Source of the DNA: Escherichia phage vB_EcoM_EC001
Sequence record: MN445185.1
Strand: one strand, 5' to 3'
DNA: 64,000 nt
This document shows positions 644 to 58,590 of the stretch, piece after piece; the stretch's first letter is position 1, and each line of letters opens with the position of its first letter. The position numbers and the translations under genes were made by a program. The notes beneath the pieces are model-generated. The model searched no databases. It was not told the DNA's origin and worked only from the letters and a program-made list of their open reading frames with translations.

Positions 644-2748
644 TGGCGGGTCGTTCTGTACACGTGCGTGATTTGCGTATGCTTAACTCTGATCAGGTGT
701 GGAAACTACGCGGGCGTTATTACGTGACATTCGACGATGGTAAGTCGTTGGAAATGTCTAGTCGCCACATCAAACTCAGCTGGCCGTATTGGGGTGTGTC
801 GCGTCTGTATCCGCAGGTGCCCACTCCATCGACCATGGCGTATCGTCCAGGTCAGGTAGCAACAGATGACCTGCATCTGGACTTTATGTCGGAAGCAGCG
901 GTACTGGCCCGTAAAGCAGGTGTCGACCTTGCTGAAACGCGTTATATCCTGAGTCAACATGTCTACGCCGATGCGTTCAACATGACAGTGAAGAACCTGC
1001 TGTCCTATTGCACGACAATCGACTTTGATACGATGATGGAGATCTACGACCATCCGAACTTCGAACTCATCCGTCAGTGGGAAGTGCAATATCCTACTGG
1101 CTACGATGAAGATGGTCGGGATATGGTTGAAGAAGCGTACAAGCTTATCGAGAAAATCTTCAAAGACCCTGCGCTACGGTATAACCCGGTCGTGATGTCG
1201 GTACTGGATGGTACTGTGAAGATGAACCAGGTACTGCAAGCCTTCGTGCGTGGTAAAACGTCAGAAATTGACTCACGTGTATACACCAATCAGGTGTGGG
1301 AAGGCTTCTTTACCGGAATGCATTCGGTTATTTCGCGTTTGAAAGAATCTGGTGCAACTTCACGTTCCCACTTGTACAACACTGACAAGATTGCCGAAGC
1401 AGAATACGCCTCACGTAAACTGCAGCTGGCAGCAAACGTACTGATGTATTTCACGTACGACGACTGCGGTACAACTCACGCACACCGCTACACGTTTAAG
1501 GATACGCAGCTGGATGAGCGTGCCTATAAAGCGATGGTGGGGATGCGTTATCGTTTAGAAGGTGATAATGGTCCGTGGTTGAGATTTGAGAAAGGTGGAT
1601 ACGCAGACCTGGTTGGCAAACCGCTGGTCTTCCGTAGTGCCATGACCTGTAAAGAGATGGCGAATCAGTCCATCTGTGCGACCTGTATGGGGGATTTGAT
1701 TTATAACCTCTCTGAAGGTACGTCACCAGGTCATCTGGCATCCACGTCCATCTCGGAAAAGGGTACACAGGGAATTCTCTCTACCAAGCACCTTGACTTC
1801 TTGCGTTATCTGCTCAACCTGGTACTCACCCCACGTATGCGTGAGTATATGACCGAATACAAACATAACTCTCTGAAAGGGTTGTGCTTGCTGCCAAAAC
1901 CACAGCGTGGGAATTGGTCAGAATACGAGTTGGTTGTTACCGACAAAGTTTATTCGGAGCTGAGCCAGATTGCGTATCATGAAGATCTCGATGCAATTGA
2001 TGAAACGGCATTACCAGAAATCACCGACTTAACTTTCCAACGTCGTTTAGAAGATGGGCAGATAATCGCTGCGGATTCTATCGATGTGCGAATGGGTGTT
2101 TGTGGGAACTTCTCTAAACCGTTCCTGCACTACTTCTTGAAACAACGAGCGAACATTCGTATCGAGAAGAAGACGGTTCAGATTCCTTTGAAAGGATGGA
2201 ACCCGAAACACCCGGTCCTGGTCTACACCAACCGTTCTGAATCGATGGCGGAGTTCGTAGCCGGCTTAGAAACCAAGCTCCGTTCGATTGCTGCCGATAA
2301 GAACGAAGACATTGTGGAAATCATCAACACAGCCTCGACTGTGAAGCTGAACAAGAAACAAGGTCGTGTGAAACCGGTGACGTTGGTTGAAATGGGTGGT
2401 GCTACAGAGAAACAGTGTACTTATGCGTTGATGGACACGTTTAAGTATATCCAGCGTAAGCTGAGTGGTATACCGATGACGCACATTGCGATTATGTTGG
2501 CGATATCTCGTGTAGAGTCGCCAACCAATCCGTTCCCGGCAGTAGGATTTGACAGTGAGGATTCTACTAATGCCACCGGGAAACGGTTTGTCGATCACAA
2601 CACGCTCATTAGTTTGCGCTCGGCAATTCCGATGTTGTTGTTTGAAGGACAGCAGGGGAATATCGATCGCGTTGGTTTTTATACCGAGTACAAAATCCCG
2701 GCATCGTTGTACGATGACCTAGGAGCCGCTGTGGTAATTGAGTTGTAA
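643..2748 (+). CDS. hypothetical protein (701 aa)
   Basis: Long ORF, GGAGGA SD at 631-636, translationally coupled to upstream ORF, followed by intrinsic terminator; no motif recognised. Confidence 0.8.
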   Translation: MAGRSVHVRDLRMLNSDQVWKLRGRYYVTFDDGKSLEMSSRHIKLSWPYWGVSRLYPQVPTPSTMAYRPGQVATDDLHLDFMSEAAVLARKAGVDLAETRYILSQHVYADAFNMTVKNLLSYCTTIDFDTMMEIYDHPNFELIRQWEVQYPTGYDEDGRDMVEEAYKLIEKIFKDPALRYNPVVMSVLDGTVKMNQVLQAFVRGKTSEIDSRVYTNQVWEGFFTGMHSVISRLKESGATSRSHLYNTDKIAEAEYASRKLQLAANVLMYFTYDDCGTTHAHRYTFKDTQLDERAYKAMVGMRYRLEGDNGPWLRFEKGGYADLVGKPLVFRSAMTCKEMANQSICATCMGDLIYNLSEGTSPGHLASTSISEKGTQGILSTKHLDFLRYLLNLVLTPRMREYMTEYKHNSLKGLCLLPKPQRGNWSEYELVVTDKVYSELSQIAYHEDLDAIDETALPEITDLTFQRRLEDGQIIAADSIDVRMGVCGNFSKPFLHYFLKQRANIRIEKKTVQIPLKGWNPKHPVLVYTNRSESMAEFVAGLETKLRSIAADKNEDIVEIINTASTVKLNKKQGRVKPVTLVEMGGATEKQCTYALMDTFKYIQRKLSGIPMTHIAIMLAISRVESPTNPFPAVGFDSEDSTNATGKRFVDHNTLISLRSAIPMLLFEGQQGNIDRVGFYTEYKIPASLYDDLGAAVVIEL

Positions 2749-2751
2749 ACC

Positions 2752-2777
2752 GAGGGGCCTTGCGCCCCTCTTTTTTT
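2752..2777 (+). terminator. rho-independent terminator
   Basis: GC stem GAGGGGC/GCCCCTC followed by T7 run, directly after stop 2746-2748. Confidence 0.8.
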
Positions 2778-2794
2778 GTGCGAAGAGGGGCAGC

Positions 2795-5539
2795 ATGGTA
2801 GAAATTCAAATGACTTACACGAGTATGGGGGTACGGGTTGAAGTCCCTATCCGCCAGGCTGAAAGGGCCATACTCGCGTGGGCCGAAGAGAATATGCACG
2901 CCCCAAAGATGGGCAAGCAACATGGACGAATAACTACGGAACGCGGTGACGCGTACTACGCCCACATTCCGTCTTTAAGGACGTTCATTTTCCATAAAGT
3001 GTTCGCTGAGAAGATTAAACATATCCTCCAACGAGCAGCAATTGAATATGCTTTTCAGTACAAGCTTACAGAGCACCATCCTGAGCGAGGAACACCTTAC
3101 TGCTGTACATTTGATAACTACGGCTTCTCGATGGTAGAAAGCGATCCGGAGTCGCGTTTCTACTATCAGAACGAGGTTGTGGATGCAGCGTCCGATCCAA
3201 ACCGACCACAGACAATCTTTGCCATTCAGACAGGGAGAGGAAAATGCTGTGCTCATGGTACGCGTGTGCGTGTACCGGGTGGTTGGAAGAACATTGAGGA
3301 TATACAGCTAGGTGATTACGTTACGGGGCGTGACGGAAAACCAGCAATGGTCTCTGGAGTGTTCCCACAGGGTGTGGTTGACCTGTATCAGGTGACGTTT
3401 TGGGATGGTAGGAGTGTTGACGTATGTGGCGAGCACTTGTGGCAAAGCTACTACGTTAATACCACCGAGAATCGTCGCTGGGGTGTACGTGATACCCTAG
3501 AGATGAAACGTTTAATTTCGATGCCTAATCCACGGGTATACATCCCATTACCAGAACCAGAGGAAATGCCAGCTAAGGATTTTGTCATTCATCCGTATTT
3601 ACTCGGTATCCTCTTGGGTGATGGCTCCCTATCGATGCCTGGTGTTTTATACACCAAAGGCGATGTGGAGATTCGTGACCGTGTTGCTGAGGTCATGCCC
3701 GCTGGACATGCAATCCATGATTCATCGTACAGCGATGGGATAACGAAGTGCATCTCTTGTCCCGGCGGTGTTAACCTTGTCCGCAGAGAGCTTGAGCGGT
3801 TAGGGTTAATTGGCTGCAGGTCTTGGGAAAAGTTCATACCTGGAGATTACTTCGAAACGTCCATCGAACAACGGTGGGAGTTGTTGCGTGGCTTGATGGA
3901 TACTGACGGTACTGTGGATAAGGATGGTGGTACGCCTTCTTTCTGTTCCACCAGTAAAGAATTGGCTTTAGGTGTTCAGGAACTTGTGCGGTCTTTAGGA
4001 GGGATTGCAACACTACGCGAGAAACGTCCGTTCTTCACACACAACGGCGAACGTCGTGAAGGTCGTTTGGCTTATAACGTCTCCATCCGCCACAAAACAC
4101 CATCGAAACTGTTCCACCTTCCAAGGAAGAAAGAACTGTGTCGTGATAACGGACAATACACCGATATACTGAAACTCCGTGTTAAGTCTATCGAACCCAT
4201 TGGTCGTGATCTTGCCACGTGTATTCGTGTCGAGAACGACGATGCGTTGTTTGTGGTGGACAAGTGGATCGTTACGCACAACACCAAGACCTGTATGAAG
4301 TCGATGGTTAAACGGGGAACCCGTACCGCATTGATTCACCGTCCGTCGTACGTTCCCAAATGGCTGTTTGACGTCTGTGATGATGAAACAGGACTTCGTA
4401 TACTTCGTGACGAGGTGTTAGTTTGTACAGGCGTACAGGCGATTTACGACGCGCTGGAGATGGGTAAGTCGGGAGAGCTAGATAGTCGTGGTATTAAGGT
4501 AATAATCCTCCCCACGGTCTCTCTACAGCGTTTCCTGAAGGAGTACATTAACACTGCTGCGACTAACCCTGTGGACCTGGATACGTTTTATGATGTTCTG
4601 GGTGTGGGTCTGGTGGCGATGGATGAGGTGCACGAGCATTTTCACCTCGTTTACATGGCTGGTATAATGTTGAACCCTCCGGCATCGATAGAGATGTCTG
4701 CAACCCTTAAGCCGGGTAGCAGTAAAGCCTTTATCGCGGAGCGGTATTTAGAACGTTTCCCAATGGAGTACCGAATCAGTATTCCAATCATTCCGGTGGT
4801 TGACGTGAAGGCGTTGTACTATCGACTGGATGATAAGAAGTTTGCGTGGTGGGCGTCGAAGATGACGCCGTATAACCACAAGCTCTTCGAAGGGAAGCTG
4901 ATTAAAGAGAACTTGCATTTAGAATACGCGAACATGATCTGGGATGTGGTTGAGAAATCGTTCCTTAAACGGTATCAACCTGGCCAAAAATGTTTGATAC
5001 TCTTTGCTACGGTAGCGATGTGTGAGTTCTTTACCGAGTATGTGAAAGATAAGTTATCGCGTGACCCTGTATTCCATCCGTTGATGGTGGCGAAATATAA
5101 TGCAGGCGATTCGTATGACGACTTTATCCAAGCAGACTTCTCTATCTCCACACCGGGGAAAGCGGGGACTGCGGTCGATAAACCTGGGTTGGTACACATG
5201 TACATTTCAACCCCGGTAGAAGACCAGCAACTGAACGAACAGATGGCCGGTCGTCCACGTAAGATTCTCCACAACGAATGGGGTGAAATAGACCCAACGG
5301 TGTGGTTATTCCATGCGTATAACGTACCGAAGCATTGCAATTACCTGAATGCCCGCCAGAAATCACTCAAGGATGTCGTATTGTCGTTCCGTATCGCGAC
5401 ATCCCCCTACGTTGTAAGGAAATCACATGCTCACTCCGCCGCGTCCAGCAGAGCCGCTGCCACCCTACATCGGAATGACTTTAGCAAGTTTTCTCGAAAA
5501 CGTTCTAAAGGCGTATCCCGGCGTAGAAGACGTCGCTAA
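2795..5539 (+). CDS. SF2 DExH-box helicase interrupted by an intein (914 codons, about 568 aa after splicing)
   Basis: Motif I AIQTGRGK|T restored after intein removal, motif II VAMDEVHE, motif III MSATL, motif VI QMAGRPRK; ATG 2795 with GAGGGG SD; the track start 2738 is a TTG inside the upstream gene. Confidence 0.75.
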   Translation: MVEIQMTYTSMGVRVEVPIRQAERAILAWAEENMHAPKMGKQHGRITTERGDAYYAHIPSLRTFIFHKVFAEKIKHILQRAAIEYAFQYKLTEHHPERGTPYCCTFDNYGFSMVESDPESRFYYQNEVVDAASDPNRPQTIFAIQTGRGKCCAHGTRVRVPGGWKNIEDIQLGDYVTGRDGKPAMVSGVFPQGVVDLYQVTFWDGRSVDVCGEHLWQSYYVNTTENRRWGVRDTLEMKRLISMPNPRVYIPLPEPEEMPAKDFVIHPYLLGILLGDGSLSMPGVLYTKGDVEIRDRVAEVMPAGHAIHDSSYSDGITKCISCPGGVNLVRRELERLGLIGCRSWEKFIPGDYFETSIEQRWELLRGLMDTDGTVDKDGGTPSFCSTSKELALGVQELVRSLGGIATLREKRPFFTHNGERREGRLAYNVSIRHKTPSKLFHLPRKKELCRDNGQYTDILKLRVKSIEPIGRDLATCIRVENDDALFVVDKWIVTHNTKTCMKSMVKRGTRTALIHRPSYVPKWLFDVCDDETGLRILRDEVLVCTGVQAIYDALEMGKSGELDSRGIKVIILPTVSLQRFLKEYINTAATNPVDLDTFYDVLGVGLVAMDEVHEHFHLVYMAGIMLNPPASIEMSATLKPGSSKAFIAERYLERFPMEYRISIPIIPVVDVKALYYRLDDKKFAWWASKMTPYNHKLFEGKLIKENLHLEYANMIWDVVEKSFLKRYQPGQKCLILFATVAMCEFFTEYVKDKLSRDPVFHPLMVAKYNAGDSYDDFIQADFSISTPGKAGTAVDKPGLVHMYISTPVEDQQLNEQMAGRPRKILHNEWGEIDPTVWLFHAYNVPKHCNYLNARQKSLKDVVLSFRIATSPYVVRKSHAHSAASSRAAATLHRNDFSKFSRKRSKGVSRRRRRR
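3245..4282 (+). mobile_element. intein with LAGLIDADG homing-endonuclease domain (346 aa)
   Basis: In-frame insert begins with Cys right after GRGK, ends VTHN followed by Thr; two LAGLIDADG-type motifs LLGILLGDGSL and LLRGLMDTDGTV. Confidence 0.75.
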
Positions 5540-48088: not shown

Positions 48089-48148
48089 AAAAAGAAAAGG
48101 TACCTCTCCCCGAAGGGAGAGGTAAACCTTATTTCTTTTTCTTTTTTT
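48089..48148. terminator. bidirectional rho-independent terminator between convergent genes
   Basis: TACCTCTCCC/GGGAGAGGTA hairpin flanked by A-run and T-run. Confidence 0.85.
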
Positions 48149-48150
48149 GT

Positions 48151-50895
48151 TTAGAGGACGTTGTCTGGGTTGTCGTCGGTAGTTCCTTCACCACCTTCTG
48201 TGCCTTCCGTTCCCTCGGTAGTTGTTTCCGTGGTTTCGGTCGACTCAGTCGTTTCCCCTGTACTATCCCCGTCGGTTCCGTTATCCGTATCGAAATCGAG
48301 GTCTAAATCATCGTCACCCCCACCACCGAGATCTCCTTCGCCACCACCGGTGTCACCGCCCGCATCAAAACCACCGCTGAATCCGCCAGCAGATTCGTTA
48401 GGGTCAAGGTCAGCATTTTTCGCCAACGTTTCCAGACGACCTGTAAAACGTTTCGCCAACTGAATCAGCGTCTTCGAAGCAGCCATCGCTTCATCAGTCA
48501 TCATGGTGATGTTGTCTTGACGAGATTTATCGTCGTAAACCAGATCGAAGAAGTCAGTTTCAATGCCTTGTTTACGCAGCCAGTTGCGCGTATAGAAGGA
48601 TTTGATCATCGTCTTCAGATCGTTCGGGTCCATCGAGATGCCTTCTTGCTGGAGTTGCGCAGCAATGTCATCCGTTACAACCAGATCAGCCAGCTTCTCA
48701 AAGAACTCCGTACGTTTATCGAACAGCTCCATCTGCGAAGCTGCTGCAGAGGTGTCTGGCGGTGGTAAGGTTACTTTCATACCGTTGATAAACGCAGCCA
48801 GGTACTCAGAGACCTTTTTCGTAATCTGGTCAGTAGTCATCCCATTGCCGTTAGCATTGATATACTCTGCAATGATTTTAATCATCGCTGATTGCAACGA
48901 CGGGGAGGCCAACATCCCATTAACTACGTAACGTGTCAGTGGCTTAGAGAGAATCTCTTGCTTCTTAACAACTTGTTGCGTGACCAGCAACGATTTAGAG
49001 AAAATCTGTGAAGCGAATTCGATGTTCTCGGGGGTCATTACCAGGTCGGGGTCAACGCCAGCGATGTGACAAGTGCGACGTAACAGACCTTCGTCGAAAT
49101 CCTTATCCGGGTATTTATAATCCGGCGTAGTATCCGACACAGACACTTTGGTACTACCGTAGTAGTCGTTACCAATAACGTTAAACGCAATACCTGCGTT
49201 TGTCGTCATTGCCCAGGTGTCGTTCATGTCCCCCCACATCGGTTGACGACGGTTATAGGAGTTCATGATGTCTGTTTTCAGCTGGTCAATTGTTTTCTGA
49301 CCGTTCATGTCGTCTGGTGCCAACTCAATGTCGTACTGCATGTGACGTGCAGAGTTCAACACCGCAGAGTTCATGGTAGCGAACAACAGCGCCATACGGA
49401 CAGTAGAGATAACGAACGAGCGTTCGGTAATAGACACACCGATACCATCTTCATCAAAGTCCGTGGCAAAATAGCAAAGGTTTTCCGCAGGAATATAGAT
49501 AACCTGCGTGTGGCGTTTTGCCAGATGGCGCGCCAGCATGATACGGCTGAACGTTTCGGTTACCGTCATGCTAATCTCAGCACCACCCAACGCCTCACCC
49601 AACGCTTTTGTCAGCTGGTCTTCAGCAATCTCACCATAACGCGCTGTTAAGCGGTTAGCAATGTCTGGTGTGATTCGGGTTGTGTTGCCCATCCCCAGAT
49701 TCGCGCGGTTGATTGTCGAATCTACCATACCGTCGTTGTTCAGGTAGTTCATGAAGTTCGCATCCCCGTAAAGTGTGGAACGCGAGTTAATGAAGTTACC
49801 CATTTCGTCAACGATGGCCAGATAACCTATGGGGTTACGAACATCGTCACCGATAACGAGTGGGAGTGTGGACTCTGCTGGCAGTAATCGTTCCGTGTAT
49901 TCGATTTTGTTGGCATCGGAGAAACTCATCTTCGGTACTTCGCCGTAAAGCTTTTGCTCAGGCGTTTTCTGGTACGCTTCGTTGAGGTCGCCGATGTTGA
50001 TTAAACCGAGTTTTGCCTTCTCTTGTTCACTGTCTGTGAACTGGTCAGCGTTATACTCTGACGCACCTGTCGGCGTAGAAGGTTGTTCATATGCGTACTG
50101 CTCTAACTGACCGAACAGGCCGGTGCGAGCATTCTCCTGTGCTACACGGCGATAAGCCTCCGGTAGCAGGGTAATACGCGGGTTGTCGGTGATAACGATA
50201 TCCAGGGAAGCTAACATACCGTCTGCTTTAAACGGACTGTTAGGGGCTGCTGCAAAGTTAAGTTTAATGGTTTGTGGCTTGGTGGGCTTGTCAGCTCCAC
50301 GTGCACGACCCAGAATACTTTCTACACCAACCTTCGGTTTGTTCTCACCACCAATCTTGCCTAAAATACCCAACTGACGTTCAAAGAAGTCAGATTGGCT
50401 ACGGCGCAACGATTCGGTTGCAACAGACGGCTTTAAGCCGAAGAGTTCATCGAATCCGGTATCTGAAATCAGCAACACCGGGCTCGCGCCTTTGGATTTC
50501 AGTGCATCGTAAATCCACTGATACAGTTTGTTGGGTAACTGGCGCGTGTGGTCATGGAATTCACGCACAGGTTCCAACAACTGTTGACGCAGGTCGATCG
50601 GGATATCAGCCACGTTGTCGTAAATCAGCGTGGTGTTAATCAAATCTTTTGTGGACAGGAGTGAGGAGGTCGCGATGGTAACAATGACCTCTAACTCAGG
50701 GAGCGCATCAAAGATACGTTCGGCATTTTTAACGGTGCGAATGCGGCTACTCGCAATGCCCGTGAGTTCTGTACGGGTTGGTGTAACGCCACCATCTTCA
50801 CGCTTACCGCGTTGCTGCTGAGCCGACGGGCTCGTGGACTTACGCAGTATGGCAGCTACCGCGGGGTCGCCCGTTAATTTACTAATATCTTCCAT
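48151..50895 (-). CDS. hypothetical large protein with acidic Gly/Asp/Thr/Glu-rich C-terminal tail, possibly virion structural (914 aa)
   Basis: Long ORF; GGAG SD on minus strand. Confidence 0.8.
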   Translation of the reverse strand: MEDISKLTGDPAVAAILRKSTSPSAQQQRGKREDGGVTPTRTELTGIASSRIRTVKNAERIFDALPELEVIVTIATSSLLSTKDLINTTLIYDNVADIPIDLRQQLLEPVREFHDHTRQLPNKLYQWIYDALKSKGASPVLLISDTGFDELFGLKPSVATESLRRSQSDFFERQLGILGKIGGENKPKVGVESILGRARGADKPTKPQTIKLNFAAAPNSPFKADGMLASLDIVITDNPRITLLPEAYRRVAQENARTGLFGQLEQYAYEQPSTPTGASEYNADQFTDSEQEKAKLGLINIGDLNEAYQKTPEQKLYGEVPKMSFSDANKIEYTERLLPAESTLPLVIGDDVRNPIGYLAIVDEMGNFINSRSTLYGDANFMNYLNNDGMVDSTINRANLGMGNTTRITPDIANRLTARYGEIAEDQLTKALGEALGGAEISMTVTETFSRIMLARHLAKRHTQVIYIPAENLCYFATDFDEDGIGVSITERSFVISTVRMALLFATMNSAVLNSARHMQYDIELAPDDMNGQKTIDQLKTDIMNSYNRRQPMWGDMNDTWAMTTNAGIAFNVIGNDYYGSTKVSVSDTTPDYKYPDKDFDEGLLRRTCHIAGVDPDLVMTPENIEFASQIFSKSLLVTQQVVKKQEILSKPLTRYVVNGMLASPSLQSAMIKIIAEYINANGNGMTTDQITKKVSEYLAAFINGMKVTLPPPDTSAAASQMELFDKRTEFFEKLADLVVTDDIAAQLQQEGISMDPNDLKTMIKSFYTRNWLRKQGIETDFFDLVYDDKSRQDNITMMTDEAMAASKTLIQLAKRFTGRLETLAKNADLDPNESAGGFSGGFDAGGDTGGGEGDLGGGGDDDLDLDFDTDNGTDGDSTGETTESTETTETTTEGTEGTEGGEGTTDDNPDNVL

Positions 50896-50906
50896 TGGGG
50901 TCTCCG

Positions 50907-53090
50907 ATGCAGAGATTTAACATTTTTCGTGACCAGGCTATCCAGTTAGCGAAATCCCTGATTGTCAAATCAGAGAGCATCGCACAACAGATGAACCTGG
51001 CAATAACCAAAAACGGCGGTTTCGTTTCCGAGAACCGTGAGACGTGGCGGTATTACCTACACTTAGCAGGTAAACGACATGCAATCGACAAGCCGATATA
51101 CATTACGTCACTCGACACGCAAGAGCAGATAGAGTTAACGACGCAGAACCTCTCCCGTCATAAAAAGACCTCAAACGTATATCGTTCTAACCCGGAGTAT
51201 ATCGACGACTTAATCGCCGAGTATCCGGACTACGCAGTATATATTCGAGGCACTTTCAATCCGATTGATATTGCATACGCGATACGTGTCGATGACTGCT
51301 CAATTTTGTATTACGATCCTGCTTTAGTTGAACCGCAGGAGACGTCGTTAATTACACATATTGAGAACTTTATTCGTGCGGCACATGTGCGGTTCATGGC
51401 CGATGGCTGGAAAGTTCACAACGACTGTTTCGTACTGGCCTTTTACATGCAACAGTACCCGGTGTGGCCGGGGCTTATCATGTACATCCGCAAACGGTTA
51501 CAGTTTACGACCGAAACGCACTCCTACTACGTGACCGAGTTCTTGGCTTCACACCAAGAACTGCACGAGTTCATGCCGTACCTGACCCTCAAGCAGAAAT
51601 TCACACTGTATCGCAATATCCGTTACTGGGAACGTAACTCTGGTAAGGAAGAAATCTTTACCTGGATGATTGACACCCTGCTGACGGGTTGGGGTATGCC
51701 TGCTGTTGGATATAAGGTCGCCCAGCAGATTCACGACCCGACGACGGGCAGTGATGATGACCTGACACCACTCCCGATCGGCTACCAGTCATCGCTTAAC
51801 TATACTGAACGTGACTCGGGTCGTGACCTGGACATTGTTAGCACAACTGACATCATCCGGAAAGAAATCAATCTGGCGTACAATAACCCAGTGCACGAAC
51901 CTGACTATCAGGAAGACCTCGATCGGCGTTTGAGCTTGACGCAGTATCCGAACCTGCCAACGAAGTTAGTTGAGGTAACGGCGATTGACCCAGAGGCCAT
52001 CGAACGTTGGGAATTTATGCATGGCTTGTTCAACGAGTGGATGCATATCGTGGCACGTGGACAGTACAACATTTACCACGAAATTCTTAACCCAACGAAC
52101 GGGGATACGCTAAAGCTCACTTCAAAAGAGCTGCTGGCACTGTTCTTGTATGCGAGCTTCAAAGGTTATTCTGGCGTAGCACTGGATAAGATCCCGGTGT
52201 GGAACGTGTTTGGTGTGTTAATCAAACGCTGGGTTGGTTTTGATGAGATGGAGCAGTATCTGCCAAGCTCATGGCCCGGTCGTTTTAATGCGTTGATTAA
52301 CTATTACACGGACACGCATCATGAAGTTATCGGTAATTTGACGTCTGCAGATGAGTTGTACGATGAAATCAGCGAAATCATGGTGCAGAAGCGTCGTCGT
52401 TACCGTTACTCGTATAATCGACACAAGCTAGCCGACCGTGCTGCCGGCACAATGTTGTTTACCTACCACTACCGTGACTATAAGTGCGATCTTGACCTAC
52501 CTTACCGCGATTACGACGAGTTCTTCAAAACGTTTGGTTTTGATTACAAGTTAGTCTCCGCGGAAACCTGGCAGGACATCGCCACCGACGCTTTAAACGT
52601 GGCCACTAATCTGGAAACACGTGCGTCTGTCTCACAAGCTGAAATACAACGCGCGATGGTGCGGTTAATGACGAAACTCTCGTCGTATACTGTCCATTTT
52701 GCCGCACGTATGGGTTCTGACACCTACGATGTCACCGACCCAGTCATCCCGATTCTGGATGATATTCTCGCAGAGGCTGCCGATACAACAAATATCATTT
52801 ACCCTCTGACAGACGTGCAGCGTGTGAGCCGTAGTTCATTCATGACGACGGATAAGCCCATCCCTGTCGCTCCCGTGATAAAGGAAATGGCAATCCCGCA
52901 ACGTATTAAGTTGCGGATGAATGTCTACCCTGGTATCCGCGTGAAGGTCGAGCAGGATGTTGTGGTCGATATGGTACAGCCGCCTATTGATATTATCCGT
53001 GTGCGGACGTCATTTGAGGAGTGGACGCTTGCCGAGCGCGTGGCCGACCGTGACATGGATGGCTTCCGGTTAGACCAATTACCAAAGTGA
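50907..53090 (+). CDS. hypothetical protein (727 aa)
   Basis: First in-frame ATG (the track start 50895 is a TTG that overlaps the divergent start codon). Confidence 0.8.
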   Translation: MQRFNIFRDQAIQLAKSLIVKSESIAQQMNLAITKNGGFVSENRETWRYYLHLAGKRHAIDKPIYITSLDTQEQIELTTQNLSRHKKTSNVYRSNPEYIDDLIAEYPDYAVYIRGTFNPIDIAYAIRVDDCSILYYDPALVEPQETSLITHIENFIRAAHVRFMADGWKVHNDCFVLAFYMQQYPVWPGLIMYIRKRLQFTTETHSYYVTEFLASHQELHEFMPYLTLKQKFTLYRNIRYWERNSGKEEIFTWMIDTLLTGWGMPAVGYKVAQQIHDPTTGSDDDLTPLPIGYQSSLNYTERDSGRDLDIVSTTDIIRKEINLAYNNPVHEPDYQEDLDRRLSLTQYPNLPTKLVEVTAIDPEAIERWEFMHGLFNEWMHIVARGQYNIYHEILNPTNGDTLKLTSKELLALFLYASFKGYSGVALDKIPVWNVFGVLIKRWVGFDEMEQYLPSSWPGRFNALINYYTDTHHEVIGNLTSADELYDEISEIMVQKRRRYRYSYNRHKLADRAAGTMLFTYHYRDYKCDLDLPYRDYDEFFKTFGFDYKLVSAETWQDIATDALNVATNLETRASVSQAEIQRAMVRLMTKLSSYTVHFAARMGSDTYDVTDPVIPILDDILAEAADTTNIIYPLTDVQRVSRSSFMTTDKPIPVAPVIKEMAIPQRIKLRMNVYPGIRVKVEQDVVVDMVQPPIDIIRVRTSFEEWTLAERVADRDMDGFRLDQLPK

Positions 53091-53097
53091 GAGACTT

Positions 53098-53625
53098 ATG
53101 GGATACCGTATAGATTTATCAAAAACCCCGAAACAGATTCTGGTTGAGAGAATCAATTACGTTTTTAAGTTATCGTATAGTGAAAATAACTACGAGTTTA
53201 ACCCACGTGGGGTGTGGCCGTTAACCCAAGCAGAGCGACGCGCTAAAGGTGTGGAGTCTAAAGTTGCGGCGCGCTTTGTAAATGGGGTACACGGCACTCA
53301 AGAGTTTTACCTGACTCGTGCGGACTTAAACAAGTTACTTAAAGACGTAACGGTTGAAGTCCCGAAGGGTGCGGCAGAATGGAGCCATGAATTAGTTCCG
53401 TATATTGTCGATGAGCTGGGTCTCCAGCTTGACACCTACGATATCATGGTTGAACCGATTACCCCGGAAATGGAATCGTATGAGGCGCGCTTAATCCCGC
53501 ACCATCTATCTTTCAAAGGCACGATTGCGATTACTTTTGTTGACCCAACTCCCCGTAAGCTGGCGCAGCTGGTAACTAAACGGGCACTCGACGGGTTTCG
53601 CCCAGGAGAATTTTTAAATGGCTAA
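53098..53625 (+). CDS. hypothetical protein (175 aa)
   Basis: Tightly packed operon member. Confidence 0.65.
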   Translation: MGYRIDLSKTPKQILVERINYVFKLSYSENNYEFNPRGVWPLTQAERRAKGVESKVAARFVNGVHGTQEFYLTRADLNKLLKDVTVEVPKGAAEWSHELVPYIVDELGLQLDTYDIMVEPITPEMESYEARLIPHHLSFKGTIAITFVDPTPRKLAQLVTKRALDGFRPGEFLNG

Positions 53626-54505
53626 CACCAAAGTTTACGACGGTAAACTGTCAACAGTGACTCTTAACGCGATGCGACTTACGACCGCGCTATTGACAGG
53701 TGCTGACGTGCAGTACCCACAGAAATCCACGATGAATGAGTTTTATAAACTCATGACCGCGAAGGTTCCCGATGGCGCTACACGTCCGCATTTAGGATAC
53801 ATGTGCGTGGGTAACCGTGGTCACATCGTTGATCAGTCTGATGTTGTGGCAGACGTTGTTCCCGTCGCGAAATCCCCGATTGCGTCAGGGATGTTCTCGC
53901 GCGTTCCATTGGTACTGCGTACGTTGGATAATGACTTGTCTGATGAGCAACGTAAACAGTACGCTTTCCGTACTCGTGAAACTATCGGCGCGCGGGATTA
54001 CTGGGCGTATTATCTGAAACGTATCGACATGCGCGCAGTGAAGACCACTGACCTGGATATCACTCGCGAAAACGGTGTTGAAACCGTCAAAGATTTCGTC
54101 TATACCGATGCGGAACTGAACCCGGTACCGAAAGAACTCCCAGACTACGATTACGACGATGACGGCACTGTAGAGATCCCCGACGGTCGTTATGTTGAAT
54201 CGGGCGCAGACCTGGTGATTCCATGGACTGAGTTTGATGTTCAGGAATACATGAACGTGACGGCGATTCTACGTGGTACGCCACGCAGTTCGATTATCTC
54301 TGAAATTGCGCTGTGCTCTGGCGTTGATACCCCTGAAACGGGTGAGTCGGCTACCGGTTCACAGTTCAGCTACGACGAAGCTATCGGTGTGCAGGCGTTG
54401 TACTACATCTCCCTGTTCACTAACCTGGCACAGACCAACGATCGTCTGTCACTGACCATCCGTATCGGCCAGCCGGCACCGTGGTTCTTAGGGACAGCTA
54501 ACTGA
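53618..54505 (+). CDS. hypothetical protein (295 aa)
   Basis: AGGAGAA SD; overlaps upstream gene end. Confidence 0.7.
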   Translation: MANTKVYDGKLSTVTLNAMRLTTALLTGADVQYPQKSTMNEFYKLMTAKVPDGATRPHLGYMCVGNRGHIVDQSDVVADVVPVAKSPIASGMFSRVPLVLRTLDNDLSDEQRKQYAFRTRETIGARDYWAYYLKRIDMRAVKTTDLDITRENGVETVKDFVYTDAELNPVPKELPDYDYDDDGTVEIPDGRYVESGADLVIPWTEFDVQEYMNVTAILRGTPRSSIISEIALCSGVDTPETGESATGSQFSYDEAIGVQALYYISLFTNLAQTNDRLSLTIRIGQPAPWFLGTAN

Positions 54506-55155
54506 TGCTGATTCCTGAGCCGAGGTTACCCGACAGTATGGTGAGGATTGCGGCTGTTGACCCCGGTACTGCCCATCTTGGGATGGCGGTTATCGACTGG
54601 GAATTTGGCCAACCTCAAGGTGAAGTTGTCTGGGCGGGCACGGCTCATGTTGCGGACCCTACGCACAATGGCTCTTTTGGTGAGTGCGTAGGGAAACGCG
54701 ATGCGCGTTTGGTAGAATTAGAAGAACGCTTTCGTGAGTTTTTAAAACTGGCAAGGCCGACTTTTGTCGCTACCGAAACTCCGTTCATGCGAAGAGCTAA
54801 GCTCTCAGCGTACGAGTCTGGGGTGGAGTTGCAACTGATGTTGCGGCGAACGCTTTGGGACGTGTTTCCCGAAAAATATCTCCATGGGTTTAATCCTATT
54901 ATTGTGAAGTCGTACGTTGGTGTGGAAGCAAAGGGTACAGATAAATCGCATATGCAGCAAGCGGTTACCAAGCTCTACGCTAACCATACCCGGTGCGACT
55001 TATCGGTATTGGATGAACACAGTATCGATGCCGTGGCGGTGGGTAATATCTTCGTCAGGGTCAACTTATTAAACCTAAATAGTCTCCTTCCGCCCAAGGT
55101 TAAAGTTCCTAAAGCTAAGGCTGGTAAGCGGAAAGGAAGACGCCGGAGGAAATAG
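54505..55155 (+). CDS. RuvC-like Holliday junction resolvase (216 aa)
   Basis: N-terminal VRIAAVDPGTAHLGMAV resembles the RuvC catalytic strand; C-terminal DEHSIDAVAVG resembles the RuvC acidic helix; basic tail; alternative start 54538. Confidence 0.6.
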   Translation: MLIPEPRLPDSMVRIAAVDPGTAHLGMAVIDWEFGQPQGEVVWAGTAHVADPTHNGSFGECVGKRDARLVELEERFREFLKLARPTFVATETPFMRRAKLSAYESGVELQLMLRRTLWDVFPEKYLHGFNPIIVKSYVGVEAKGTDKSHMQQAVTKLYANHTRCDLSVLDEHSIDAVAVGNIFVRVNLLNLNSLLPPKVKVPKAKAGKRKGRRRRK

Positions 55156-55157
55156 CG

Positions 55158-55730
55158 ATGTCGCAGTCTTTGCAAGAAGCCTCGACGGATGTGTTGGATG
55201 TTCTTATCCAGGCGGGCACCAATAAATTAAGCCTGGAAGAGAGTAAACGACTAAAAACAGCCGCCCAGACCGCCTTGGGAAGTGATGTTGAAATTGATGT
55301 CACTAAACCTGCTAACGTGATTCTTACTTCTTTACGCCCCCTCATCCTTGAGCAGGTGGGGAACATGGCGAAAACGTTTGAATCGCAAGCAAAAGCCGCC
55401 GTAGAAAGCATGGATGAAAAGCTCGCCAAAGAAACGTTATTGACCCTGTGGCCAAATTTGAAAGGTCCGCAGAAAGTCCTTATCGTTTTGTTGGTGCTGA
55501 CCACTGTGGTGATTACTGGCGTGATGGCCTGGGACACACACCTGCATTATCCACAAGAGTTAACGGATGTGCTGGTTGTGGCGCTCTTACCTTTGTTTGC
55601 TCAGGCCGTGTTCTTTACATGGCCGATTAAGACGCTTGCTTATAACTCGATGGCCATTGGTGCCAAAGTTGTTGAATACAAGCTGAATAAGAGCAACGCG
55701 AAGCAACAGACTACCGCACCTAAAGTGTAA
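55158..55730 (+). CDS. putative membrane protein with two C-terminal TM helices (190 aa)
   Basis: GGAGGA SD; hydrophobic segments KVLIVLLVLTTVVITGVMAW and LVVALLPLFAQAVFF. Confidence 0.65.
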   Translation: MSQSLQEASTDVLDVLIQAGTNKLSLEESKRLKTAAQTALGSDVEIDVTKPANVILTSLRPLILEQVGNMAKTFESQAKAAVESMDEKLAKETLLTLWPNLKGPQKVLIVLLVLTTVVITGVMAWDTHLHYPQELTDVLVVALLPLFAQAVFFTWPIKTLAYNSMAIGAKVVEYKLNKSNAKQQTTAPKV

Positions 55731-55736
55731 TTAAGC

Positions 55737-55777
55737 CCTCTTCTCCTCCGGGGGAAGAGGCTTCTTATTTTTTTTAT
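55737..55777 (+). terminator. rho-independent terminator
   Basis: 10-bp GC-rich stem with UCCG loop then T-rich run. Confidence 0.75.
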
Positions 55778-57834: not shown

Positions 57835-57842
57835 ACACAGCG

Positions 57843-57879
57843 TATAGGGGCTTCGGCCCCTATACTGTTTATTATTTTC
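57843..57879 (+). terminator. rho-independent terminator
   Basis: TATAGGGGC-TTCG-GCCCCTATA hairpin, T-rich tail interrupted. Confidence 0.6.
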
Positions 57880-58546: not shown

Positions 58547-58590
58547 CTACCCTCGCCCGTTTAGCGAGGGTAGGTATTTATTTTTTTCTT
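58547..58590 (+). terminator. rho-independent terminator
   Basis: CTACCCTCGC/GCGAGGGTAG hairpin then T-rich run. Confidence 0.75.

Follow-up and report, generated by a model that had tools for sequence, protein, structure and literature searches.

We analyzed a 64,000-nucleotide stretch of Escherichia phage vB_EcoM_EC001 (sequence record MN445185.1), referred to here as the window, in which an initial annotation had placed a RuvC-like resolvase with a basic C-terminal tail. The open reading frame (ORF) in question occupies positions 54505-55155 of the plus strand and, according to the ORF listing and the raw sequence, runs from an ATG start through 216 amino acids to a TAG stop. The ATG shares one base with the upstream stop codon (TGATG) and the downstream ORF begins 3 nt past the TAG, placing the gene in a tightly packed array. 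Coverage by homologues, some of them only ~42% identical, begins at Met1 and includes the short N-terminal extension; this supports the annotated start and shows that the ORF is a real gene.

Within a 4-kb stretch surrounding this gene, sequence identity is 98-99% with Proteus phage 7 and with SPFM, SPLA, and SPN3US, Salmonella phages of the genus Seoulvirus. By this identity the window phage is a Seoulvirus, that is, an SPN3US-like, nucleus-forming jumbo phage; SPN3US itself is one of the jumbo phages for which formation of a phage nucleus has been demonstrated (review PMC13282480). Its orthologous gene, gp85 (SPN3US_0085), is labelled 'hypothetical protein' in both SPN3US records, and the gene carries the name 'RuvC-like Holliday junction resolvase' or 'ruvC' in SPLA3, SPLA1a, SPLA5c, and SPFM2. 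Similar names are attached to the homologues of Kwan, pEa_SNUABM_43, pVa-21, Goslar, Noxifer, Moabite, and BONAISHI, and residues 1-186 are 100% identical to SPLA3 WNT47899.1, whose own annotation reads 'RuvC-like Holliday junction resolvase'. Across jumbo phages more broadly, a RuvC-like resolvase without a RuvB partner occurs in nearly all members of group 1 and group 3, and phiKZ-like phages have RusA in its place (Iyer et al. 2021, PMC7824862). The resolvase is not new: jumbo-phage RuvC-like resolvases form a large, known family, of which it has already been annotated as a member.

The records of some close relatives differ in how this gene was called. For SPFM1, 7, 8, 9, and 20, the resolvase product scores well by HMMER, and its best BLASTP local alignment covers 11-12% of the query. 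Comparison of the sequences suggests that these gene calls are frameshifted or contain errors.

RuvC fold and catalytic residues

Profile and fold comparisons place the protein in the RuvC family. It matches PHROG 159 (RuvC-like Holliday junction resolvase) over residues 1-215 with an E value of 1.9e-38 and 133 bits. Searched against the PDB as a single sequence with phmmer, it reached Thermus RuvC at E ~0.01; a profile built from 23 homologues matched the RuvC proteins of Thermus (E=1e-4), Deinococcus, and Pseudomonas (to E=0.03), with the catalytic residues in register. When 1.84 billion cluster representatives were searched exhaustively with a profile, 1148 related clusters (50% identity) were recovered, 709 of them at E<=1e-10.

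An AlphaFold2 model was computed from the alignment of 23 homologues and had a predicted local distance difference test (pLDDT) score of 86.3 and a predicted template modeling (pTM) score of 0.83. When this model was compared with the PDB using Foldseek, the top 12 matches were all bacterial RuvC proteins (E 6e-10 to 4e-8; target template modeling (TM) score 0.68-0.80), followed by RuvC of Lactococcus phage bIL67, chloroplast MOC1, RuvX, and poxvirus resolvases. Among the viral structures of BFVD, the 'Holliday junction resolvase' of Erwinia jumbo phage PhiEaH1 ranked at the top, ahead of many phage RuvC entries. The RuvC/RNase H-like fold, for which the initial annotation had recommended a profile or structure search, was thus recovered by such searches.

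Two other assignments within this fold were considered and rejected. Membership of the RuvX/YqgF group finds little in its favor, as RuvX (7ess) appeared only at ranks 19-20 in Foldseek (query TM 0.38, root-mean-square deviation 9-10 Å) and there was no Pfam hit. The split RuvC of TnpB, IscB, and Cas9-Cas12 is excluded by a protein of 216 amino acids with a contiguous RuvC core; matches to IscB were marginal and covered the first strand motif only (profile E=0.04; Foldseek ranks 29 and 39).

Conservation of individual residues was counted in an alignment of 160 sequences, comprising representatives from the profile search, 6 further homologues, the window protein, and 6 named phage homologues. 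A resemblance to the first catalytic strand of RuvC had originally been noted in VRIAAVDPGTAHLGMAV (residues 13-29), and Asp19 of its VDPG motif (gac, 54559-54561, plus strand) does align with the first catalytic Asp of Thermus RuvC, the Asp of the DPG motif found in both the Thermus and the Deinococcus protein. This residue is present in 159 of the 160 family members, the remaining one having a gap. Glu91 (gaa, 54775-54777) and the aromatic Phe94 (54784-54786) are both in TETPF (54775-54786, plus strand); Glu91 aligns with the catalytic Glu of Thermus RuvC, the residue that is mutated in the substrate complex 4ld0. Every sequence in the alignment has Glu at position 91 (160/160) and either Phe or Tyr at position 94 (160/160). 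We take Phe94 to be equivalent to the junction-stacking Phe of E. coli RuvC, three residues past the catalytic Glu.

The stretch DEHSIDAVAVG (residues 170-180), initially likened to the C-terminal acidic helix of RuvC, likewise proved to hold catalytic positions. Its first part, D170-E171-H172-S-I-D175 (55012-55029, plus strand), corresponds to the H-x-x-D motif of RuvC: the family pattern 'L.DehsiDaiava' aligns to 'LfNNHAADALALA' of D. radiodurans RuvC (7w8d), which sets His172 and Asp175 on the Deinococcus H-x-x-D residues. The two are kept in 157/160 and 160/160 sequences, respectively. Because Asp19, Glu91, His172, and Asp175 are retained in the family together with an aromatic residue at position 94, the resolvase looks catalytically competent.

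Outside the catalytic core, a Pro-rich extension of ~12 residues, MLIPEPRLPDSM (54505-54540, plus strand), precedes strand beta-1, as seen from homologue conservation and the model; the solved bacterial RuvC chains align from their own first residues to query residue 13-15. The extension is conserved in homologues (M-IPEP--PD), Pro-rich equivalents occur in Goslar, pVa-21, Noxifer, and HPP-Temi, and the first 10 residues have a pLDDT of 86. Relative to bacterial RuvC, the model also contains a lower-confidence insert at ~residues 49-66.

Substrate specificity is not readable from sequence, and RuvC-fold nucleases are versatile; fowlpox resolvase is reported to cut many branched substrates with little sequence specificity (PMC6962361). 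The protein might then be a RuvC-fold nuclease with some other role, such as degradation of host DNA or attack on the DNA of competing phages. We consider this improbable, however, given that every one of the closest structural matches is a dedicated junction resolvase and that the aromatic wedge position is invariably aromatic in the alignment. In addition, a jumbo phage seldom has more than one of RuvC, endonuclease VII, and RusA, a near mutual exclusion that speaks for a common role as resolvase (Iyer et al. 2021, PMC7824862).

The polybasic tail and its helicase counterpart

The basic end pointed out in the initial annotation, KVPKAKAGKRKGRRRRK (residues 200-216), is present, and it is the distal part of a longer polybasic tail spanning residues 190-216 (NLNSLLPPKVKVPKAKAGKRKGRRRRK; 55072-55152, plus strand). 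This region contains 12 Lys/Arg residues and no Asp or Glu, giving a charge of +11.8 compared with -2.9 for the core. In the AlphaFold2 model its pLDDT is 52-57 and it has no secondary structure; the tail is predicted to be disordered. Each of the 23 aligned homologues, the most distant at 42% identity, keeps the composition of the tail but neither its sequence nor its length, and tailed homologues down to 35-42% identity have 9-15 Lys/Arg residues with almost no acidic ones.

Basic charge at protein termini was scanned in every ORF of at least 60 amino acids in the window and in the whole SPN3US genome (817 ORFs), and the resolvase ranked first, with the most basic C-terminus of the 817; its tail is therefore more than a product of chance. 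Within the resolvase family, the 150 best cluster representatives were sampled and an end was called strongly basic if it carried a net charge of +6 or more over the last 15 residues. Such an end was found in 17 representatives (~11%), with a bimodal distribution of terminal charge; the remaining 133 have no tail and end 11-25 residues past the H-x-x-D helix. Among named phages, the tail occurs in SPN3US-like phages, in Erwinia phages, and in Vibrio phage pVa-21; those without it are Noxifer, HPP-Temi, Moabite, KpLz-2_45, and Vibrio phage 2 TSL-2019. Goslar and BONAISHI keep just 'KRR' or 'TRR' at this position. Across the sequences sampled, the tail is a trait of a sub-clade and not of the family. 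Tailed proteins formed two large groups and several scattered lineages in a rough neighbor-joining tree, about 7 separate lineages in all, with at least 7 state changes, a pattern that suggests repeated gain or loss.

The last three codons of the gene (cgg agg aaa) hold the GGAGGA Shine-Dalgarno sequence of the next gene, 8 nt upstream of its ATG. From this overlap it might be argued that the tail has no function at the protein level and is a by-product of nucleotide constraints, whether a downstream ribosome-binding site or purine-rich sequence. We find this explanation scarcely credible, since the ribosome-binding site accounts for at most 2-3 of the 27 tail residues and the basic composition is kept in homologues whose tails vary in sequence and length, with terminal charge falling into two classes. 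A similar tail is moreover kept in nearly all homologues of a second protein, a helicase.

This helicase, the gp36 orthologue (2738-5539, plus strand; probable true start near 2795), ends in ...SRKRSKGVSRRRRRR and is encoded by the only other real gene with a similar polybasic tail. PHROG 16 names it a DNA helicase; a phmmer search of the PDB with the protein found nothing, and Pfam returned only weak DEAD/ResIII matches. In an AlphaFold2 model of the SPN3US-type gp36 (pLDDT 85), the last 36 residues are disordered. The best matches in a fold search with this model were XPB/Ssl2 helicases and T4 UvsW (rank 2), at E ~1e-12, with TM scores that are low from domain orientation. Because of these low TM scores the assignment is limited to the superfamily level, at which the model supports gp36 as an XPB/UvsW-like superfamily 2 helicase; its identity with UvsW is uncertain. 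Of 110 full-length gp36 homologues, 107 retain the tail, at identities as low as 41%.

The window helicase is also interrupted by an intein of ~346 amino acids, with Hint and LAGLIDADG homing-endonuclease domains, at ~residues 170-520 of the ORF. The intein is absent from SPN3US gp36 (568 amino acids), and intein-plus (~910 amino acids) and intein-minus forms are both common among relatives. The third most basic terminus among real genes in the SPN3US scan is that of gp112 (100864-101169, outside the window), a protein of 101 amino acids in PHROG 12339, a family of unknown function, with the Lys-rich C-terminus ...ASKKAAKATKKVVDKRKRAVA; it could be a small DNA-binding protein. Finally, many Salmonella enterica and E. 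coli isolate assemblies carry the resolvase and helicase phage proteins on ~240 kb contigs. Whole SPN3US-like genomes thus accompany these bacterial assemblies, and the cause could be a carrier state, pseudolysogeny, or contamination.

The resolvase and helicase tails occur together in the window phage, SPN3US, and Erwinia phage Derbicus. Vibrio phage pVa-21 has the RuvC tail only, without a helicase tail, and both tails are missing from Goslar, TSL-2019, KpLz-2_45, and Moabite. A strict co-occurrence of the two tails was considered and holds only partly, pVa-21 being the exception. The strong conservation of both tails and their co-occurrence in the Salmonella and Erwinia clade would fit a lineage-specific tag that is common to the RuvC-like resolvase and gp36, marks them as a branch-migration-plus-resolution pair, and co-recruits both. 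The solitary RuvC tail of pVa-21 weighs on this idea, as does the fact that the branch-migration role of the helicase comes from fold similarity alone, and we regard such a tag as unlikely. If it existed, it might recruit the enzymes to DNA, to a common acidic partner (for example, a tail like that of single-stranded DNA-binding protein), to the shell of the phage nucleus, or to a packaging site, each of these being part of the same unlikely proposal. Under this unlikely proposal, repeated independent gains of a tail in the RuvC family would reflect selection for co-recruitment.

Another possible destination is the phage nucleus itself, for which the tail could be a targeting or retention signal that the import machinery or the acidic chimallin shell would read. 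The tail resembles a monopartite eukaryotic nuclear localization signal (KRKGRRRRK), and both SPN3US proteins that bear such a tail are DNA enzymes. SPN3US forms a phage nucleus, so its DNA enzymes must enter, and the shell has been described as negatively charged (PMC13282480). Import has been reported to proceed, however, via surface patches read by Imp1/PicA and not via terminal signals (PMC13282480), and the RuvC orthologues of the nucleus-forming phages Goslar, Moabite, and Noxifer have no tail. Polymerases, RNA polymerase subunits, and other nucleases also need to be imported, yet only 2 of ~264 proteins carry the tail; for this reason it cannot be a general import signal. That general version was rejected on the count of 2/817 ORFs with a tail and on the published import without terminal signals (PMC13282480), and a signal specific to these proteins also strikes us as improbable.

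Gene neighborhood

The resolvase gene belongs to a probable transcription unit, gp82-gp83-gp84-RuvC-gp86 (50895-55760, plus strand), recognized by its tightly packed or overlapping ORFs and by a terminator-like hairpin at its end. The unit is divergent from the portal gene (gp81 orthologue, 48151-50895, minus strand), gp81 being the portal of SPN3US (PMC5105663). In the ORF listing, the gp82 orthologue lies at 50895-53090 and the gp83 orthologue at 53098-53625, both on the plus strand; next comes the gp84 orthologue (53618-54505, plus strand), a DUF7208 gene (PF23838, E=2.9e-99). All three are annotated as virion structural genes. Downstream of the resolvase, the gp86 orthologue (55158-55730, plus strand) matches PHROG 8722 and has no Pfam hit, and 7 nt past its stop codon is the hairpin, a GC-rich stem of 10 bp with a T-run (55737-55760). 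The order of DUF7208 followed by RuvC is also found in pVa-21, HPP-Temi, BONAISHI, and Noxifer and is kept in 5 of the 7 lineages sampled. Goslar and Moabite do not have this order, and their resolvase gene is next or close to thymidylate kinase. A literature search found no paper mentioning DUF7208.

A unit of head genes beside the portal gene fits debranching of replicated DNA before or during packaging. The same position, beside the portal gene and sharing a unit with three genes annotated as virion structural, might instead indicate that the resolvase is a virion component. Its tail would then bind the genome so that the nuclease is packaged and can act at an early stage of the following infection; many ejection proteins are reported to be packaged in SPN3US heads. 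RefSeq, however, lists gp82, gp83, and gp84 as virion structural and gp85 still as 'hypothetical', and the orthologue of Goslar and Moabite is near thymidylate kinase, not near virion genes. The SPN3US proteomics and genetics papers that were searched do not mention gp85 in their text, although this is absence of evidence only. Taken with these observations, a place for the resolvase in the virion appears very improbable.

The annotated nucleases gp206, gp207, and gp27 were also checked and belong to exonuclease, RNase H-like, and SbcD families, none of which are resolvase families. As a second resolvase, gp206 (annotated as an endodeoxyribonuclease) was rejected because its family, PHROG 255, is an exonuclease family.

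Other features of the region were recorded alongside. The gp86 orthologue (55158-55730) contains two hydrophobic stretches, VLIVLLVLTTVVITGVMAW and VLVVALLPLFAQAVFFTW, and the gene in the corresponding position of Noxifer and HPP-Temi is annotated 'Rz-like spanin'. Two perfect GC-rich hairpins of 10 bp with T-runs on both strands, at 48101-48124 and 57842-57865, resemble bidirectional terminators, and one-directional terminator-like hairpins are found at 55737-55760 and 58547-58573. Terminator-like sites are commoner than in shuffled sequence (19 found versus 12.5 expected). A scan for sigma-70 promoters gave 10 sites against 13.8 expected from shuffled sequence and is uninformative, because the phage uses its own RNA polymerases.

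Proposed function and its weight

We propose, with a probability of about 0.78, that this gene provides the phage with its own junction-resolving endonuclease of the RuvC family, which debranches replicated DNA for packaging and has a basic tail that serves as a DNA tether. By analogy with RuvC, the enzyme would be a metal-dependent homodimer in which Asp19, Glu91, His172, and Asp175 bind the catalytic metal ions and Phe94 helps to open the crossover. The dimer would make paired nicks across four-way and other branched DNA. Such debranching of the recombination-rich replicating genome would occur inside the phage nucleus and would allow terminase to package the DNA. The polybasic tail would be a nonspecific electrostatic tether that holds the dimer on duplex DNA and permits a one-dimensional search for junctions, without a RuvAB partner delivering the enzyme.

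An electrostatic DNA tether is the likeliest role for the tail, and the analogy behind it is T7 endonuclease I. In that enzyme, deletion of a disordered, mainly basic N-terminal peptide of 16 residues reduces the residence time on duplex DNA at least 10-fold; one-dimensional diffusion is lost and junctions are found by collision only (PMC9547003). A tether could bring the same advantage to a stand-alone resolvase that has no RuvAB and must locate rare junctions within a genome of 240 kb. In position and length the two differ, the T7 peptide having 16 residues at the N-terminus and the tail of the window resolvase 27 at the C-terminus, and the functional parallel is one that we infer.

Bacterial RuvC (PF02075; 1hjr, 4ep4/4ld0/6s16, 6lw3, 7w8d) shares with the phage protein the RNase H-like fold (target TM 0.7-0.8) and the catalytic tetrad, in its Thermus/Deinococcus D-E-H-D version, and both have an aromatic residue three positions past the catalytic Glu. 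The two differ in that they are ~20% identical, with the phage protein under the Pfam and NCBIfam cut-offs, and in the additions found only on the phage side: the 12-residue N-terminal extension, the insert at 49-66, and the 27-residue polybasic tail. Bacterial RuvC also works in the RuvABC resolvasome, whereas jumbo-phage RuvC is uncoupled from a RuvB-like ATPase (Iyer et al. 2021, PMC7824862). Among phage proteins, the window protein is a direct member of the jumbo-phage resolvases (PHROG 159; Goslar gp010, Noxifer gp145, Moabite gp139, PhiEaH1, SPLA3), a group that is mostly tail-less, so that it stands in a tailed minority. RuvC of bIL67 (4ktw) and the poxvirus A22-type resolvases (6p7a/6p7b, 5e6f) are stand-alone viral enzymes of the RuvC fold that work without RuvAB; as structural matches (E 2e-5 to 4e-4, 10-14% identity) they are more distant than bacterial RuvC. 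The role proposed here, clearing junctions from replicated phage DNA, is that of T4 endonuclease VII (gene 49) and T7 endonuclease I (gene 3), although their folds are unrelated to that of the RuvC-like resolvase.

Several observations count against the proposal of a tethered junction resolvase. As a single sequence, the protein scores 14.4 bits (E=0.035) with Pfam RuvC PF02075, under the gathering threshold of 22.2, and 23.9 bits with the NCBIfam RuvC equivalog NF000711, for which the cut-off is 163. Because these single-sequence matches are only sub-threshold, it is the profile and fold methods that settle the RuvC assignment; 9 of the 23 aligned homologues match Pfam RuvC at E<=1, the best at 1.8e-7. 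In terms of these models, the protein is a divergent member of RuvC and not an equivalog of bacterial RuvC, and 'RuvC-like' is the fitting name. The tail is not needed for core function, because 133 of the 150 representatives do without it. That the resolvase is made late, with the head proteins, is something we infer from the neighboring genes only. Literature searches found no biochemical, genetic, or localization study of gp85 or of any jumbo-phage RuvC and returned only the Iyer 2021 survey and general reviews; the resolvase goes unmentioned in the core-genome paper and the Annual Review.

These results leave current understanding unchanged and amount to an ordinary annotation, well supported by sequence comparison and structural modeling. 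They do give an enzyme class and a likely role to a gene that is 'hypothetical' in the reference genome of SPN3US, which serves as the genetic model of giant phages that form a nucleus, and they name the exact catalytic residues for mutagenesis. The basic tail is a genuine, conserved feature of a sub-clade, and its explanation, based on precedent, is plausible. If the tail works like the peptide of T7 endonuclease I, the protein would be a second, independent phage resolvase that uses a disordered basic terminus to search long DNA. The presence of a similar tail on one other enzyme, the helicase, offers a modest lead on how junction-processing enzymes may find their substrates in the phage nucleus.

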